Assembly (NCBI GenBank): GCA_964446685.1
Contig: CAYUPO010000001.1
Span: 104,502-168,501 of the forward strand
Length of the DNA: 64,000 nucleotides
Origin: an uncultured Gammaproteobacteria bacterium
GTDB taxonomy: Bacteria > Patescibacteriota > Microgenomatia > Daviesbacterales > UBA10151
Reading direction: 5' to 3'
Of this stretch, positions 5,279 to 55,479 are shown one piece after another. The position numbers and the translations under genes were made by a program. The first letter of the stretch is position 1. Each line of letters starts with the position of its first letter. Under the pieces are notes generated by a model. The model had not been told where the DNA came from, ran no database searches, and saw only the letters and a list, made by a program, of their open reading frames with translations.

Positions 5279-5291
5279 GATTTACTAATTA

Positions 5292-5615
5292 TCAACTGCC
5301 CCCTACATCTGTCATTCTGGCTTGTCCAGAATCAAACAAAGTAGTATACAAATCGACCATTTCTGGATTCAAACTTTCTATCATTTTAAGTTTATTATCC
5401 CTATTCATATTTTTTATTTGTTTTTCCCGGATAATTCCTTCTATCTGTCCTTCAACAACTTCATAGTACAAAAGCTTATGCAAATGATACTTCCTAGTAA
5501 ATCCATCTACCAATTCTTCTTTATGCTCAGTAACTCTTTTTATTAAGTCACTTGTGACACCTGTATACAATGTAGGTCTATTATTACCCATAATGTAAAC
5601 ATACATCTGTTTCAT
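5292..5615 (-). CDS. GIY-YIG nuclease family protein (COG2827/YhbQ-like URI domain)
   Basis: 107 aa; YVYIMGNNRPTLYTGVTSDLIKRVTEH = GIY-YIG core; bracketed by inverted repeats 5311-5333 / 5624-5690. Confidence 0.7.
   Translation of the reverse strand: MKQMYVYIMGNNRPTLYTGVTSDLIKRVTEHKEELVDGFTRKYHLHKLLYYEVVEGQIEGIIREKQIKNMNRDNKLKMIESLNPEMVDLYTTLFDSGQARMTDVGGS
5311..5333. repeat. left inverted repeat flanking GIY-YIG gene 1 (GTCATTCTGGCTTGTCCAGAATC)
   Basis: reverse-complement halves found at 5624-5635 and 5680-5690. Confidence 0.65.
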
Positions 5616-5623
5616 CTTGTTTA

Positions 5624-5690
5624 GATTCTGGACAGATATTTTTAAGGCTAAGTTAATTCCAATCTAAACAATTAAGGTAGCCAGAATGAC
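5624..5690. repeat. right inverted repeat flanking GIY-YIG gene 1 (GATTCTGGACAG ... GCCAGAATGAC)
   Basis: RC of the left-repeat halves, split by a ~44-bp spacer. Confidence 0.6.
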
Positions 5691-5696
5691 AAATGG

Positions 5697-6845: not shown

Positions 6846-7409
6846 TTGGTAAACTCAGCTCTAACAATGACTGAATTACCTGAAAGAAGAACAATCTATA
6901 TTGGTGAAAGAGCCGTAGATACAGCTTTAATCATAGAAGCTTCAGATTCGTTACTCGATTGCAATTTACAGGTAGTAGATGCCTTGCAACAAAATTTATC
7001 AATTATTAATCCTGGACTTGATACCAGACCTGAAAGTTTTGCTGTTCGACAAGCCTTAGATAAAATATCTCTCGGTGAAAAATTACGCAAGCGTTGGAAA
7101 AAAGATGAAGTTGCCTTAGTAAGACTGCTGGTAGAGTCCGGAATACATACTCATCCTGCTAAAATTTGGGATAAAATTCTGCATATCTTTCCTTATGCCA
7201 GAGAACTTCCGAGAAAGGACGATGCAGAAAATTTTCTTAATTCAAGAAAGGCAAGTATTCAAGTTATTCAATCACCAGCTATGAAATACCGATTAGGAAG
7301 TCTGAAAACTGCCGGCTTTACTATGGTTCAAAATACGATTTTGCGAGGCGCAATGCAAACCCAAACTTACATGTTACCAACTCATCCCGGAAGATTTAGT
7401 CCCAACTAA
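6846..7409 (+). CDS. hypothetical protein
   Basis: 187 aa ORF, no recognisable motif. Confidence 0.4.
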   Translation: MVNSALTMTELPERRTIYIGERAVDTALIIEASDSLLDCNLQVVDALQQNLSIINPGLDTRPESFAVRQALDKISLGEKLRKRWKKDEVALVRLLVESGIHTHPAKIWDKILHIFPYARELPRKDDAENFLNSRKASIQVIQSPAMKYRLGSLKTAGFTMVQNTILRGAMQTQTYMLPTHPGRFSPN

Positions 7410-7424
7410 TTAATAGCTACAGTT

Positions 7425-8996
7425 TTATTCCCATTCCATAGTTGCGGGAGGCTTTGTTGTTATATCATAAACTACTCTATTAACTTCTGTTACTTCGGTT
7501 ACTATTCTGTTTGAAATTTTCATTAATAATTCAAATGGTAAATTAGCTACATCTGCACTCATGGCATCTTTAGCATCCAGAGCTCTTAAGGCAATTGTTT
7601 CTCCATAAACTCTTTGATCACCTCTGACACCGGTTGTTTTGATGTTTGTAAAAATAGCAAAAGCCTGCCAGAGTTTGTCCTGCAATTTGGCTTTTAAAAT
7701 CTCTTCCTGGACTATAAAATCCGCTTGCCTTAAAATCTCTAAATTATAGTCAGTGACAGCTCCAATGATTCTAACTGCAAGGCCTGGACCTGGGAATGGC
7801 TGTCTTTTAACCACTGAATCCGGCATTCCCAGCAATTTACCAACCTGTCTGACTTGATCTTTATAAAAAAGCCGCAAAGGCTCAATTAGGGCCAGTTTCA
7901 TGACTTCTGGTAGCCCACCAACATTGTGATGGGACTTTATATTCTGAGAATGTTTGGTTCCCTGACTTTCTATCACATCTGGATAAATTGTGCCCTGGAC
8001 TAGAAATGTGGCACCAATCTTTTTGGCTTCTCTGTCAAAGATATCTATGAATGTTTTACCAATAATTTTTCTTTTGGTTTCCGGATCAACTACTCCTTTT
8101 AAGGCAGATAGAAATTCTTTTTTGGCATTAATGATCTGCACTTTCATGTGATAATGGTCTTTAAAAACTTTTTTCAAAACATCAGTTTCTCCTTTTCGCA
8201 TTAGTCCTGAATCAATATAAAAAGAAGTAAGCTTGGTTCCGATTGCCCGATGAACTAAGAGAGCAGCAACTGATGAATCGACTCCGCCGGATAAAGCGCA
8301 GATCGCTTTTTCATTACCAACCGACTCTTTAATATCTTCAATCATTTCAGCTACATATTTTTTATTTAAGGGAGATAACTCTGGTTTTAAACCACAGATT
8401 TTTAGAAAGTTGGATAAAATTGTTTCACCAAATTGGGTATGCACTAACTCTGGATGAAACTGAATACCAAAAAGTTTTCTTTTTTCATCTGACATAGCAG
8501 CCACAGGAATAGTTTTGGTAGTGGCATTTGTGACAAATCCTTTTGGTGGTTTCATTACTGAATCTCCATGCGACATCCAGACATTAAATTCCTCAGATGT
8601 TCCTTCAAATAAAGAATTTGCTTTTGATACCTTTCCTACATTTGATACCTTTAAATTAGCTGGCCCATACTCCCGTATTTTCCCTGGTTTTACATCTCCT
8701 TTTAAAAGGTGTGCCATCAGTTGCTGCCCATAACAAATCCCTAAAATTGGAATACCTAATTTAAATACCTCTTCAGAAATAGTTGGACTATCTTTTTCAT
8801 AAACAGAAGACGGCCCTCCTGAAAAAATAATCCCCATAACGTCATTCCCGCGACCTGTACTGAGCGAAGTCGAAGTAAAGCGGGAATCTAAATCAATATT
8901 CTCTGGCAAAATAATTTTTGTCTTCACCCCAAATTCATTTATTCTCCGGGAAATCAGATGTGTTGATTGTGAACCAAAATCGATAATTATTATCAT
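7425..8996 (-). CDS. guaA: GMP synthase, glutamine-hydrolysing (GuaA), carrying a 48-bp in-frame palindromic-element insertion
   Basis: 523 aa; GATase CYGQQ, FHPE, PP-loop SGGVDSSV; extra DSRFTSTSLSTGRGND encoded by repeat at 8841-8888. Confidence 0.9.
   Translation of the reverse strand: MIIIIDFGSQSTHLISRRINEFGVKTKIILPENIDLDSRFTSTSLSTGRGNDVMGIIFSGGPSSVYEKDSPTISEEVFKLGIPILGICYGQQLMAHLLKGDVKPGKIREYGPANLKVSNVGKVSKANSLFEGTSEEFNVWMSHGDSVMKPPKGFVTNATTKTIPVAAMSDEKRKLFGIQFHPELVHTQFGETILSNFLKICGLKPELSPLNKKYVAEMIEDIKESVGNEKAICALSGGVDSSVAALLVHRAIGTKLTSFYIDSGLMRKGETDVLKKVFKDHYHMKVQIINAKKEFLSALKGVVDPETKRKIIGKTFIDIFDREAKKIGATFLVQGTIYPDVIESQGTKHSQNIKSHHNVGGLPEVMKLALIEPLRLFYKDQVRQVGKLLGMPDSVVKRQPFPGPGLAVRIIGAVTDYNLEILRQADFIVQEEILKAKLQDKLWQAFAIFTNIKTTGVRGDQRVYGETIALRALDAKDAMSADVANLPFELLMKISNRIVTEVTEVNRVVYDITTKPPATMEWE
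8841..8888. mobile_element. 48-bp palindromic element inserted in-frame in guaA
   Basis: GTCATTCCCGCG...CTGAGCGAAGTCGAAG...GCGGGAATC; exactly 16 codons. Confidence 0.7.
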
Positions 8997-9523
8997 AAAT
9001 TATTTAAAATAAACTCCATTCTTTTTTCCGATTTCATAACAGGTACCCTGACAACCGTGTGACCATATTTTATATATGTTTCCTCTAATAAGCTATCTAT
9101 CTCTTTTGCTTCTTCTGCAGTCTCTGTTCTGGAATAATCTTTTGAGTATTGCAATAAATCAAAGATAAATACTTTTTTATATTTACTTAGTTTGGCAATT
9201 TCAGATAACTCATACTCATCTGTTATCCCACATTTTTTCAAATACGCAATGGAATCATGCATCCCCCTATCAAAAAAAATCATTTCATTCTTAGACAAAG
9301 ACTTTTCAAGTTGAATTTTTAAATTTACCTGAGCTTTTTGGAATTCAATTTCATTTTCTCTAATCTGTTCCAGAGTTCTACCTTTTTTCAACTCTTGATC
9401 AATTAGTTTTCTAGCAACCTCTTCAGTAATTTTAAACCCTTTTTTGCTTAATAATTTAAGCACTGTGGTTTTGCCTGATGATGGAGGACCTGTTATCACA
9501 TACCAATTATTCTGACTATTCAT
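8993..9523 (-). CDS. P-loop NTPase / predicted small kinase (AAA_28-like)
   Basis: 176 aa; Walker A GPPSSGKTT. Confidence 0.5.
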   Translation of the reverse strand: MNSQNNWYVITGPPSSGKTTVLKLLSKKGFKITEEVARKLIDQELKKGRTLEQIRENEIEFQKAQVNLKIQLEKSLSKNEMIFFDRGMHDSIAYLKKCGITDEYELSEIAKLSKYKKVFIFDLLQYSKDYSRTETAEEAKEIDSLLEETYIKYGHTVVRVPVMKSEKRMEFILNNL

Positions 9524-10468
9524 TTATGTGGTGTAAACACTTTTCCTGCCTACTTTCTGTCTTAATATTTGTCCTAAAACATGCCAGTTGCTAAAACTAA
9601 ATGAATTGACTCCTTTTGGAGGAGTTGCAACTTCTTGGTAATTTCCAAATAGTACATTCCCAGCAACAGCCATCTGACCATCTTTTACAGGGTCATCTCC
9701 AAAGTATATTACTTTATCAGCATGTTCATGAATTAAAGAAAGATCTAAGTCATCATGTGGGAAACCGGGTAAATCAAGCCATCTCCTTACTGCTAGTGCT
9801 AAAGAGAAGGGTGATGGCTTAACTATATTCTTACCATCAAGTGAAGAGACACCTCTAATGTCATCTTCTGACACAATAATATCTGGTTGAGACAATCCAT
9901 GTTTTTTAAATGTTTCTTCAATAAATAATTCATGACCTGAGGAAATATTTGCCGTTGTAATCGGGACACCTTCTTTTTTTAGATCATCGACAGTTTTCCA
10001 AAAATCAACAAATCCTCTACAAGGGCGTGGCCAAATATCTTTTTCAGATAATTTCATACCTATTTGGGGCATCATACTTCTTTGCTTTTGTCTAACAAAT
10101 ATTTCAGTCAATGCTTCCGTAGTTAATGGTTTTGTTAAATCCAATTCATACCCTTTTCCAACTGGCACATAACCATCTAGTAGCTCTAAGTTCTGGTGAG
10201 CGAATTCACCTGCTAAATTAACCAATTTAGCATTATTTCTTGCTGAAGAACCAGTAACAAGTGCTTTAACCACTTCGCTTGGGGCTCGGTTACGTAATCC
10301 ACCTTGAGCTAAATAAAGATTTAATCCCATTTTGCCAAACATCCTCTCAACAGTTTGTTCATAAGCTACTGGCACACTGGCAATCCCCGGCGCCATCTCG
10401 CTAGTCCTAAACTGGGTATTATCAAAATCAAACGCCAGTAATAATCCTTCAGGGGAATGGCGTTTCAT
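9524..10468 (-). CDS. HAD-like hydrolase (putative phosphatase)
   Basis: 314 aa; motif I FDFDNT, motif IV FGDDPVKD. Confidence 0.45.
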   Translation of the reverse strand: MKRHSPEGLLLAFDFDNTQFRTSEMAPGIASVPVAYEQTVERMFGKMGLNLYLAQGGLRNRAPSEVVKALVTGSSARNNAKLVNLAGEFAHQNLELLDGYVPVGKGYELDLTKPLTTEALTEIFVRQKQRSMMPQIGMKLSEKDIWPRPCRGFVDFWKTVDDLKKEGVPITTANISSGHELFIEETFKKHGLSQPDIIVSEDDIRGVSSLDGKNIVKPSPFSLALAVRRWLDLPGFPHDDLDLSLIHEHADKVIYFGDDPVKDGQMAVAGNVLFGNYQEVATPPKGVNSFSFSNWHVLGQILRQKVGRKSVYTT

Positions 10469-27401: not shown

Positions 27402-28718
27402 TCAAGTAATTTTATTTTTTAGATATTTTTTATCTTTTAATTTATCAGGCAGTAAACTTTGATCTGTATACATTTCATAGCCTTTGCCGTATCCCACCTC
27501 TTTCATCAGCTTGGTTGGTGCATTTCTTAAGCTCATTGGTATAGGTAAATTGCCGTATTGTTTGACATCGGCCTGAGCTGCTCTGAATGCATCATAGGAT
27601 GTGCGGTCTTTTTTGGCAGATGCCAGATACACCACTCCATGAGCTAAATTAATACCACACTCTGGGTAGCCAATTGTTTCACAGGCTCTGAACACTTCAT
27701 TTGCCACAACCAAAGCTGTGGGTTGCGCCATACCAATATCTTCAGAAGCAAAGATCACCATTCTTCTGGCAATAAATAAAGGATCCTCCCCTGCTTCAAT
27801 CATTCTGGCTAAATAATAAAGAGCAGCATCAGGATTTGATGCCCGCATTGATTTGATAAAAGCTGAAATTGTATTGTAATGCTCTTCCCCGCCTTTGTCA
27901 TAAGCTAAAGCTTTGTGCTGGAGAGCCTCTTCAATAAGTTCTTTGGTGATTCTACCCTTGTCATGCTGAACCGATTCGGTCTGAGCCTCACGGTCGAAGA
28001 CTTGTTTCAGCATCTTCCCCTTGAATAAGTTCTCATTTTGATCAGCTTGAGAATTGGCAGATCCTGAAACAAGTTCAGGATGACAAAAATACGAAGCTAT
28101 TTCCAAAGTGTTCAAAATCATTCTGGCATCTCCGTTTGAATGTTCAATTAAAAATTCCTGAGCATCTTTAGCAATTTTTAGTTTTAAGTTTCCTAATCCT
28201 TTTTCTTTGTCTTTTAAAGCCCGGTTTATTAACTCTGAAATATCTTCCGGTTTTAGAGACTCTAATACAAACACTCTGGAACGGGATAACAACGGGGAAA
28301 TAATCTCAAAGCTGGGATTCTCAGTCGTCGCCCCAATCAGAGTGATTGTGCCATTTTCAACATATGATAAAAATGCATCCTGCTGGGCTTTATTAAAACG
28401 ATGAATTTCATCAATAAAAACAATAGTCTGCTTTTTTGAAAATAAAGTCCTTTGCCCTTTTAACTCTTCAAAGATTTTTTTCAGATCAGCTATTCCGGTA
28501 GTAACCGCTGAAAATTCCATAAAATCTGAATCTGTTTCATTGGCAATAATCCGGGCTAAGGTGGTTTTACCGACTCCCGGAGGACCCCAGAACATCATAG
28601 AAAAAATCCGGTTTTCTTTAATTGCGTTATAAAGCAGTTTACCAGGAGCTAAAATATGCTTTTGACCAACATAATCAGCGAGGGACTGCGGACGCATTCG
28701 GTCAGATAATGGAATCAT
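27402..28718 (-). CDS. rarA: replication-associated recombination protein A (RarA/MgsA AAA+ ATPase), carrying an in-frame palindromic-element insertion
   Basis: 438 aa; Walker [10 protein letters not shown], Walker B FIDEIH; repeat copy at 27965-28011 encodes [15 protein letters not shown]. Confidence 0.85.
27965..28011. mobile_element. palindromic element inserted in-frame in rarA
   Basis: GCTGAACCGATTCGGTCTGAGCCTCACGGTCGAAGACTTGTTTCAGC; paralog of 51-98. Confidence 0.65.
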
Positions 28719-35371: not shown

Positions 35372-35393
35372 GTGTTATTTATACTACCTCAAA

Positions 35394-35692
35394 CGTCATT
35401 CCAGCGAAAGTCATCGATTCTGAGGTCTAACGCCTCCACCTCCAGACTCGAAGAGCAGGCATCTGTAATAACAGGTTAGCAATTCATTAAATTTTCACCT
35501 AGTTATCAGAGAACAGATTCCCCTTTACAGGGGAATGACGTTTACTAGTTAATTATTAACTGACTTCCGGCCACAGCGGTAGTGGTTTCCGTCATTCCTG
35601 CGAAAGCAGGAATCTGTTATAACTGGAACTAACTAGGAAACTATTGAAACCCTGTATGAAAACAGCAGATTCCCCTTTTCAGGGGAATGACG
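35394..35692. repeat. array of at least four GTCATTCC-type palindromic elements in the folD-yjjX spacer
   Basis: 35516-35540, 35590-35616, 35666-35692 are clear hairpins (ATTCCCCT/AGGGGAAT, ATTCCTGC/GCAGGAAT); 35394-35430 is degenerate. Confidence 0.75.
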
Positions 35693-35697
35693 AATTT

Positions 35698-41866: not shown

Positions 41867-41882
41867 CTGAGCGAAGTCGAAG
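41867..41882. repeat. left IR of GIY-YIG gene 2 (CTGAGCGAAGTCGAAG)
   Basis: perfect RC at 42222-42237; the same 16-mer lies inside the guaA insert. Confidence 0.8.
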
Positions 41883-41928: not shown

Positions 41929-42198
41929 ATGAGTAGCTGGAAATGGTTTGTGTATATTTTAGAATGTCAGGATGGAAGTTATTACACTGGATTAAGTTAT
42001 AGATATGATCAGCGATATGAACAGCATTTATCTGGATTGGGAGGTAAATACACAGCTAACCATGGAGTTAAAAAATTAGTATATGTTGAGGAATATGATA
42101 ACTTCGAGGAAGCTAAGTTAAGAGAAAACCAGATCCATGGATGGACAAGAAAAAAGAAAGAAAACCTAATAATAGGCAAATGGACAAAATGGCAATAG
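41929..42198 (+). CDS. GIY-YIG nuclease family protein (COG2827/YhbQ-like), second copy
   Basis: 89 aa; WFVYILECQDGSYYTGLS...QH core; bracketed by perfect 16-bp inverted repeat CTGAGCGAAGTCGAAG (41867-41882 / 42222-42237). Confidence 0.7.
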   Translation: MSSWKWFVYILECQDGSYYTGLSYRYDQRYEQHLSGLGGKYTANHGVKKLVYVEEYDNFEEAKLRENQIHGWTRKKKENLIIGKWTKWQ

Positions 42199-42221: not shown

Positions 42222-42237
42222 CTTCGACTTCGCTCAG
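42222..42237. repeat. right IR of GIY-YIG gene 2 (CTTCGACTTCGCTCAG)
   Basis: perfect RC of 41867-41882. Confidence 0.8.
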
Positions 42238-47452: not shown

Positions 47453-47479
47453 CAGATTCCTGCTTTCGCAGGAATGACG
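47453..47479. repeat. palindromic element CAGATTCCTGCTTTCGCAGGAATGACG between tsf and frr
   Basis: same hairpin type as 35590-35616 and 51427-51450. Confidence 0.7.
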
Positions 47480-51373: not shown

Positions 51374-51450
51374 CGTCATTCCCCTGAAAAGGGGAATCTG
51401 TAAATACCTAAGAGTAGGCACCGCATATTCCTGCTTTCGCAGGAATGACG
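51374..51450. repeat. two palindromic elements between the thyA-family gene and dcd-like gene
   Basis: CGTCATTCCCCTGAAAAGGGGAATCTG and ATTCCTGCTTTCGCAGGAATGACG. Confidence 0.75.
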
Positions 51451-55398: not shown

Positions 55399-55403
55399 TT
55401 TTT

Positions 55404-55479
55404 GTCATCCCGAACTCGTTTCGGGATCTACCCTTTTGTATAACCTCGGCAGATGCTGAAACAAGTTCAGCATGACAAG
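55404..55479. repeat. two palindromic elements between mazG-like gene and pyrG (GTCATCCCGAACTCGTTTCGGGATC; GATGCTGAAACAAGTTCAGCATGAC)
   Basis: second one shares CTGAAACAAG with the 51-98 / 27965-28011 variant. Confidence 0.65.

Follow-up and report, generated by a model that had tools for sequence, protein, structure and literature searches.

A nested CGTC-type hairpin repeat, read in frame and probably carried as a passenger, in the GMP synthase gene of a Candidate Phyla Radiation bacterium

The gene guaA, encoding the glutamine-hydrolysing GMP synthase, carries in its glutaminase domain a self-complementary DNA element that is read in frame in a 64,000-nucleotide (nt) stretch of contig CAYUPO010000001.1 (GenBank assembly GCA_964446685.1, positions 104,502 to 168,501), hereafter called the window. 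The assembly is recorded as an uncultured Gammaproteobacteria bacterium and is placed by GTDB in the Daviesbacterales, within the Patescibacteriota, that is, among the ultra-small bacteria of the Candidate Phyla Radiation (CPR). We conclude that the guaA segment is probably a tolerated and translated copy of a known class of small hairpin repeats, the CGTC-tagged repetitive extragenic palindromes (REPs) that include the dRS3/NTS and SRM hairpins, in a nested form that arrived as a composite and that is a passenger in the enzyme and not a functional part of it. All coordinates below are those of the window, and L and P numbers denote loci or contigs and GuaA proteins, respectively, from other assemblies.

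The original prediction, made on the letters of the window, had singled out 48 bases at 8841-8888 as a palindrome of exactly 16 codons inserted in frame. Re-reading the window gives letters identical to those quoted, and the arms are 100% complementary: the left arm ATTCCCGC (8844-8851) pairs perfectly over 8 bp with the right arm GCGGGAAT (8880-8887), which lies 28 nt away, and the pattern ATTCCCGC-N2-32-GCGGGAAT has a single match in the window where 0.01 are expected from shuffled sequence. The G+C content of 8841-8888 is 54%, compared with 38% for the window, and falls at the 97th percentile among 48-nt windows. While the in-frame palindrome stands as proposed, its size does not, because a CGTC tag and a 3-nt tail are present as in six other copies in the window, which sets the limits of the real unit at 8840-8890 on the plus strand, a length of 51 nt or 17 codons. 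This complete hairpin unit is made up of the tag (8840-8843), lying directly 5' of the left arm as it does in all six short copies, the two arms, a 28-nt loop (8852-8879) and a CTA tail (8888-8890). Its tagged strand is antisense to guaA, so named on the minus strand at 7425-8996, and on that strand the segment reads DSRFTSTSLSTGRGND, residues 37-52 of GuaA, between ...ILPENIDL and VMGIIFSGGP..., in agreement with the translation first given. The GuaA peptides that would mark translation of the segment are FTSTSLSTGR and GNDVMGIIFSGGPSSVYEK. A search of the whole window against Rfam at gathering thresholds matched no family.

The 28-nt loop has a composition of its own, GA followed by 24 nt and then AA, and the 24 nt form a discrete inner module, CCTGTACTGAGCGAAGTCGAAGTA (8854-8877, plus strand), that sits inside the GAAA loop of the outer hairpin. 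Deletion of 8854-8877 restores the GAAA loop and leaves the sequence CGTCATTCCCGCGAAAGCGGGAATCTAA, which agrees at 27 of 28 positions with the Neisseria NTS/dRS3 consensus, the 28-nt NTS CGTCATTCCCGCGMAVGCGGGAATCYRG of Chenal et al. 2025 (Nat Commun, PMC11893778). The guaA segment is a nested variant, a 24-nt module inside the loop of a 27/28-nt NTS-type hairpin. Within the module lies a 16-nt core, CTGAGCGAAGTCGAAG (8860-8875), with short arms that are the module's own (TACT/AGTA). This core is found exactly three times in the window (0.18 expected), once in guaA and twice in intergenic DNA, and each of the two intergenic cores again has its own short complementary arms, the core being invariant and the arms varying yet staying complementary.

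Nesting of this kind recurs elsewhere. A scan of metagenome contigs for the pattern ATTCC-N4-24-GAGCGAAGTCGAAG-N4-24-GGAAT found such composites on at least 120 contigs, against a roughly estimated chance expectation of 1-2. The composite on L204 is nearly identical to the guaA copy and reads cgtcATTCCCGCGACCTGTCCTGAGCGAAGTCGAAGGGAAGCGGGAATcc, and ready-made composites that are nearly identical are found on the unrelated contigs L204, L152, L090 and L142, so that the composite is a recurrent unit and not a one-off accident of guaA. The placement of the module varies among the metagenome matches: in a frequent class it sits after GAAA and not after GA, and in L152 it lies in an NTS loop in reversed orientation relative to the guaA copy.

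Close orthologs of GuaA lack the segment. That it is foreign and not native linker had been suspected from the length of the linker, and the comparison upholds this, since outer shell and core each recur elsewhere in the window as well as on metagenome contigs, at least 120 of them, and the orthologs at 84-88% identity are without it. In these orthologs (92% identical outside the linker) the linker reads PDEKVLDQVKDSKVAG where the window reads PENIDLDSRFTSTSLSTGRGNDVMG, with DEKVL aligned opposite ENIDL and VA or VE opposite VM; the closest ortholog, P0002, is 88% identical, and at the DNA level the boundaries of the insert rest on relatives at 84-86% identity. The expectation of a 16-residue indel coinciding with the repeat boundaries holds insofar as the segment has no counterpart in the orthologs, but the 16 element-encoded residues stand in place of about 7 native ones that are gone, giving a net gain of 9 codons (27 nt), and the limits are those of the longer unit, 8840-8890. 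Judged from the alignment, the event would be a loss or replacement of native sequence, or else an insertion with a later compensating deletion. A native GCGGGAAT in the orthologs matches the right arm in another frame and is a candidate, though unconfirmed, homology anchor.

The net gain of exactly 27 nt also suits an origin in two steps in place, in which a plain 27-nt NTS-type hairpin entered guaA and a 24-nt module later entered its loop. Plain versions of 27/28 nt occur at the same GuaA site in other lineages (P0043, P0099), NTS loops carry the module in either orientation and in two different placements relative to GAAA, and, 27 and 24 both being multiples of 3, the frame would have been kept at each step. 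Yet the near-identical composites on four other contigs, one of which flanks a GIY-YIG gene, indicate that the composite exists as a unit; the plain intermediate was not found among close relatives; and a separate loss of 24 native nt would still be required. We regard a two-step origin as possible but unlikely. In the course that we prefer, a ready-made 51-nt composite would have arrived in guaA, landing in the linker that leads from strand 2 to strand 3 of the glutaminase domain and replacing about 7 native residues, and would now be translated as a disordered surface loop, a passenger and not a new functional part. The element may survive there because 51 nt make 17 codons, because the gene reads an open frame of the composite and because the linker tolerates extra residues.

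The gene that carries the element is intact. GuaA is 523 amino acids (aa) long, and the open reading frame (ORF) at 7425-8996 matches the Pfam families GATase (1.4e-39), NAD_synthase-like and GMP_synt_C (3e-38), the best solved relative being Protein Data Bank (PDB) entry 7sbc (E = 6.7e-150). The protein has the full GuaA architecture of a class I glutaminase with a Cys-His-Glu triad, an ATP pyrophosphatase and a C-terminal dimerisation domain, and it keeps C88, H181 and E183, the invariant catalytic columns of the ortholog alignment. The ratio of nonsynonymous to synonymous divergence (dN/dS) is 0.02-0.06 against four relatives, with dS saturated. Locus L084, from an independent assembly, has a guaA allele identical to that of the window, and L085, from another sample, is 98.8% identical over the locus with an identical element; all 14 of the guaA differences between L085 and the window are synonymous. 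With its frame intact, its catalytic columns kept, a low dN/dS and only synonymous differences from L085, guaA is not the pseudogene whose possibility the original prediction had allowed for; the element is retained in a gene under purifying selection, and this record suggests that guaA is functional with the element in frame. The 14 synonymous differences of L085, compared over 7365-9493, cluster in codons 203-269 and 512-519, a pattern more suggestive of recombination tracts than of evenly spread divergence.

A structural model bears on the question, raised in the original prediction, whether the insert forms a surface loop. In an AlphaFold2 (AF2) model built from a 69-sequence alignment, with a mean predicted local distance difference test score (pLDDT) of 81.5, residues 38-50 score below 50 and residues 34-54 are predicted without secondary structure, flanked by strands 26-29 and 55-58. 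The remainder of the model is GuaA-like and superposes on solved GuaAs; compared with PDB structures the model has a TM-score of about 0.7, and of 0.86-0.87 against glutaminase-only chains. We take a short helix to be usual in the class I glutaminase fold at the position now occupied by the insert, and the prediction is that the insert forms a flexible loop in place of most of this helix, presumably leaving GuaA activity unchanged. Length also varies in a second glutaminase-domain loop, at residues ~114-124 (window ~8625-8660), which is about 6 residues longer in the window than in the closest orthologs; at this second loop several of P0014, P0018, P0041, P0054 and P0070 have 10-30 extra residues, which in one of them include the repeat-derived VIPARAGMT.

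The linker between strands 2 and 3 is a site of recurrence in other lineages, with related inserts in further Daviesbacteria-like GuaAs. Extra residues (at least 3) are present at this site in 15 of 120 GuaA cluster representatives, and in 7 of those 15 a DSR..GND peptide is recognisable or decayed: DSR[FL]RGND can be recognised in P0043, P0099 and P0101 and an expanded form, DSRRSLPRATTRGGND, in P0047, and DSGFHQND and DSGLRQND are decayed forms. When the linker is left out of the comparison, the nearest neighbours of insert-bearing GuaAs are mostly without an insert, which points to several gains at the site or to spread by recombination. The DNA of the inserts consists of plain 28-nt NTS-type hairpins in L003 and L208 and of a partial copy paired with a full one in L207; L206 has a composite whose nested hairpin is a different one. 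In all five guaA inserts compared as DNA the tagged strand is antisense and one common frame is used. Openness does not explain this uniformity of strand and frame, as the short unit can be read through in five of its six frames; the composite has only two fully open frames, of which guaA uses one.

The relatives of the outer hairpin within the window were collected by relaxing one stem position in the family search, which added three hairpins, and by a structural scan, which gave six short copies. All six are intergenic and 27 nt long, composed of a CGTC tag, an 8-bp stem, a 4-nt loop and a 3-nt tail, and the pattern CGTC-ATTCCnnn-[G/T]AAA-nnnGGAAT-CTG fits five of them, the tail at 51424-51450 being ATG; stem variants among the short copies (CCTGC/GCAGG and CCCCT/AGGGG) keep their complementarity. 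Three form a cluster of alternating orientation at 35514-35540 (CGTCATTCCCCTGTAAAGGGGAATCTG, minus strand), 35590-35616 (CGTCATTCCTGCGAAAGCAGGAATCTG, plus strand, with a DNA hairpin of -7.8 kcal/mol, z = -4.0) and 35666-35692 (CGTCATTCCCCTGAAAAGGGGAATCTG, minus strand). A single copy lies at 47453-47479 (CGTCATTCCTGCGAAAGCAGGAATCTG, minus strand), and an inverted pair is formed by 51374-51400 (CGTCATTCCCCTGAAAAGGGGAATCTG, plus strand) and 51424-51450 (CGTCATTCCTGCGAAAGCAGGAATATG, minus strand). Together with several other GTC-tagged hairpins there are seven CGTC-ATTCC copies in the 64 kb; the window as a whole has 25 GTC-hairpin candidates where 9 are expected, and the published SRM pattern, expected 0.06 times, matches three of the six short ones. 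No consistent target-site duplication was seen in the sequence on either side of the seven copies, and neither the short-hairpin pattern nor the core occurs in the ~20-kb flanks of the relatives L001, L002, L004 and L005. The 326-nt intergenic interval at 35372-35697, with its three CGTC hairpins spaced by ~50 nt, resembles a bacterial interspersed mosaic element and has no Rfam family. Between a MazG-like gene and pyrG, at 55403-55476, there are two further GTC-tagged hairpins of opposite orientation, TGTCATCCCGAACTCGTTTCGGGATCTA and TGTCATGCTGAACTTGTTTCAGCATCTG.

Hairpins of these kinds are physically associated with small GIY-YIG genes. The first such gene (41929-42198, plus strand) lies between rpsU and tig and encodes a predicted single-domain nuclease of 89 aa (Pfam GIY-YIG, E = 1.2e-15); a stand-alone core CTGAGCGAAGTCGAAG with arms TGCT/AGCA (41867-41882, plus strand) stands 46 nt upstream of it, and an inverted stand-alone core with arms TTCCT/AGGAA (42222-42237, minus strand) 23 nt downstream. 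The second, encoding a single-domain protein of 107 aa (5292-5615, minus strand; Pfam GIY-YIG, E = 5.4e-11), is 1.8 kb from guaA. Its 3' end is overlapped by a GTC-tagged hairpin, TGTCATTCTGG-CTTGT-CCAGAATCAA (5310-5335, plus strand; DNA z = -2.9), which encodes the C-terminus ...DSGQARMTD of the protein, and directly upstream the same arms recur in a long-loop hairpin (TGTCATTCTGG, 49 nt, CCAGAATCTA; 5622-5690, minus strand). The two hairpins of this cassette (5279-5696) are inverted, and it lies between two DUF1246/DUF1297 purine genes which, in the relative L002, are directly adjacent and 68 nt apart, with the cassette absent. On L152 the order is composite, GIY-YIG gene, short NTS, and a profile search through 750 kb of composite-bearing contigs found three GIY-YIG genes, all three no more than 116 nt from a composite. 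The best PDB match of the GIY-YIG proteins of the window is a weak one, to UPF0213.

Copies in frame are not confined to guaA. In rarA (27402-28718) a long-loop GTC-tagged hairpin, formed by TGTCATGCTGAA, a 35-nt loop with CTGAGCC...TCGAAGA, and TTCAGCATCTT (27959-28016, plus strand), is translated in frame, and a short GTC-tagged hairpin TGTCATCCTGAACTTGTTTCAGGATCTG (28058-28085, minus strand) reads (F)CHPELVSGS; the two are opposite in orientation and with their spacer encode about 43 residues (CHPELVSGS...) that split the AAA lid domain of RarA/MgsA. The protein has 438 aa against 396 aa in the closest orthologs (88%), the extra residues are absent from orthologs at 80-88% identity, and related peptides occur at the same RarA site in other Daviesbacteria. 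Among the metagenome contigs, composites stand in frame in genes for murE (L123), tilS (L142), RNase D (L140), a copper-transport membrane protein (L173) and others, and the tilS of L142 has several repeats in a row. Different repeat-derived peptides follow one another in L142 (for instance DPSTSLRFAQNDRGRFPLTSTSLSTGSGGNDKEEGRCPLGGGHDK in TilS) and in L111, a series that indicates, from the peptides themselves, repeated colonisation of one loop.

The CGTC-tagged REPs were described by Di Nocera et al. 2013 (BMC Genomics, PMC3733652) as hairpins with a stem of 8-9 bp, a loop of 4-5 nt and a 3-bp tail, paired in opposite orientation and mostly intergenic, a minority lying in frame in ORFs, often those of replication or repair genes; their survey covered five phyla, CPR not among them. 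In that classification dRS3 of Neisseria is CGTC-1, and of the Rickettsia conorii palindromic elements RPE-6 is CGTC-1 and RPE-4 is CGTC-4. The guaA copy shares the CGTC tag, a perfect 8-bp stem and a 3-nt tail (CTA), and the window shows the same habit of opposite-orientation pairs, mostly intergenic with some in frame, the repair gene hit here being rarA; nested composites are undescribed in that paper. In Neisseria, SsnA, a small single-domain GIY-YIG protein, binds and cuts NTS as single-stranded DNA, NTS repeats modulate transformation, and across bacteria ssn genes are flanked by SRM hairpins (PMC11893778); that study mentions no CPR hosts, intragenic copies or RPEs. Likeness to the NTS/SRM system lies in the 27/28 agreement of the shell with CGTCATTCCCGCGMAVGCGGGAATCYRG, the oriented CGTC tag, the same arms, the recurrence within the 64 kb, and the inverted hairpins that flank small single-domain GIY-YIG genes both in the window and in L152. 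In the literature searched for the element's sequences and peptides, one Neisseria paper quotes the hairpin, and none was found on CPR or on RPEs together with GIY-YIG.

The original prediction had drawn a parallel with Rickettsia palindromic elements and called such insertions unusual outside that context. The parallel is apt, since RPE-4 and RPE-6 belong to the CGTC-tagged class together with dRS3 (PMC3733652), and, as far as the RPEs (Ogata et al. 2000) are described by the citing paper, both are in-frame palindromes that add a surface peptide to a functional housekeeping gene; guaA, too, appears from its sequence to be still functional after an in-frame insertion. The link rests on the classing in PMC3733652 and not on RPE consensus sequences, the host is another, and the guaA insert, unlike an RPE, replaces part of the native linker. 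The claim of rarity, in contrast, was overstated: intragenic CGTC and GTAG repeats are on record from several phyla (PMC3733652), and like inserts occur in other GuaAs, in rarA of the window and in metagenomic murE, tilS and RNase D. RPE-1 is called a 'longer palindromic insertion' in the same survey (PMC3733652). The guaA copy was also compared with miniature inverted-repeat transposable elements (MITEs) such as Correia/NEMIS and Nezha, which are likewise short, non-autonomous, self-complementary and dispersed and can lie in frame in genes, but which measure 70-300 bp (PMC3733652) against the 27-51 nt seen here; a MITE was rejected, the arms being of 8 bp and not terminal inverted repeats of 15-30 bp, and no consistent target-site duplication being seen. 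An intein or intron was rejected as well, the segment being too small and its frame open. The length of RPE-1 itself is about 100-150 bp.

Several points weigh against reading the guaA segment as a neutral passenger of this class. Its 28-nt loop departs from the 4-5 nt of CGTC REPs and breaks both the dRS3 spacing (N8) and the SRM loop limit of 0-5 nt, and owing to this loop there is no contiguous NTS or SRM match at 8830-8900; the SRM pattern matches neither the composite nor the short copies with CCTGC stems. We file the guaA copy as a variant of the class because its loop is a GAAA split by a discrete 24-nt module that is also found alone. The folding energy of the composite, as RNA and as DNA, is within the range of shuffled sequences (z = -1.3 to -1.6). 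Simple cut-and-paste is insufficient, because the indel is net +9 and, with 8840-8890 excised, the linker would fall 8 residues short of that in any close ortholog. The common orientation and frame of the guaA inserts is more in keeping with selection or targeting than with neutrality alone. As to movement, CGTC repeats have no dedicated transposase (PMC3733652), and no tyrosine transposase gene was noticed beside the repeats here, though no systematic search for one was made; the ssn layout was likened to an insertion sequence (PMC11893778), a likeness of layout and not of mechanism; and the GIY-YIG proteins of the window have no match in NCBIfam and are classed by Pfam GIY-YIG. The repeat may have spread by way of Ssn-like GIY-YIG nucleases, or of host repair, acting on single-stranded DNA of the hairpin, a route suggested by the association with GIY-YIG genes.

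Orientation and frame are also among the grounds for supposing that the element has been domesticated, its hairpin being kept for a role in DNA or RNA, either as a target of Ssn-type nucleases that limits or directs recombination and transformation or as a structure in the mRNA that tunes translation of guaA. Besides the antisense tagged strand and shared frame of all five guaA inserts, such a role would fit an element that is identical in two strains whose guaA genes show 14 synonymous differences, GIY-YIG genes at 1.8 kb and 33 kb from guaA, and the modulation of transformation by NTS repeats in Neisseria (PMC11893778). However, 51 nt unchanged at 1.2% divergence is what chance predicts, related GuaA inserts decay freely (DSGFHQND, SFGLRPQDD, GSTQGKQVQD), most orthologs are without any insert, the hairpin energy is unexceptional, and the GuaA inserts share a region and not one nucleotide position. 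We consider domestication improbable, and retain the view of the segment as a tolerated passenger.

That the segment is absent from the protein, being cut from the mRNA or bypassed like the 50-nt gap in gene 60 of phage T4, is brought to mind by its size of 51 nt and by the GIY-YIG genes nearby; it is very improbable, as no stop codon follows a take-off codon, the length is a multiple of three, the frame that guaA uses is one of only two in which the composite is fully open, and related GuaA inserts also have open frames and decay in the manner of coding sequence. A chimeric assembly, or a hypervariable native linker that is self-complementary by accident, has in its favour that linker length varies among GuaA homologs, but with an identical element in two other assemblies, built independently from separate sequencing runs, an arm pattern expected 0.01 times, and shell and core each belonging to repeat families, it can practically be dismissed.

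The surroundings of guaA and its relatives call for some remarks of their own. In L001 and L002 the genes purL, guaA and a DUF1246 gene are contiguous, while the window has additional genes on both sides of guaA (8993-10468 and 6846-7409), which comprise an AAA_28 NTPase and two ORFs of 314 and 187 aa, the second of them lacking a match in Pfam. Homologs with a named source come from Candidatus Daviesbacteria or Microgenomates, which suggests a CPR host of that group. A scan of genome contigs with GuaA returned mostly distant Proteobacteria and Firmicutes, the informative loci being L004-L008. Four records of metagenome-assembled genomes titled 'uncultured Gammaproteobacteria' (L004, L005, L006 and L007) have GuaAs 63-85% identical and the common purL-guaA layout, and the taxonomic labels of these four look wrong.

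The repeat class and its in-frame habit are already known; what is new is the CPR host, the hairpin-in-hairpin architecture, the hot spots in GuaA and RarA and the link between in-frame palindromes and the hairpins that flank GIY-YIG genes. A class recorded from Neisseria, Rickettsia, Wolbachia and free-living Proteobacteria is hereby extended to the CPR, where its repeats would be translated within core enzymes of genomes otherwise considered streamlined, and two literatures that here do not cite one another, on RPE/CGTC in-frame inserts and on NTS/Ssn hairpins with their GIY-YIG single-strand nucleases, are brought together. In practice, DSRFRGND, VIPAKAGI and PVLSEVEG in metagenomic proteins are to be read as repeat-derived and masked when homology is assessed, the hot spots show where GuaA and RarA accept extra loops, and the nested composites offer concrete substrates for tests of hairpin movement. 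More speculatively, and with considerable doubt on our part, Ssn-type GIY-YIG genes and hairpins in CPR might form an active mobile system that writes peptide loops at hot spots of essential proteins such as the GuaA linker and the RarA lid. If so, two undescribed properties would belong to it, hairpin-in-hairpin nesting, in which a 24-nt module inserts one way round or the other into the 4-nt loop of a different repeat, and an intragenic bias of strand and frame (tagged strand antisense, DSR..GND frame, in five of five GuaA cases), which would reflect either targeting or the keeping of nucleases off the exposed non-template strand.

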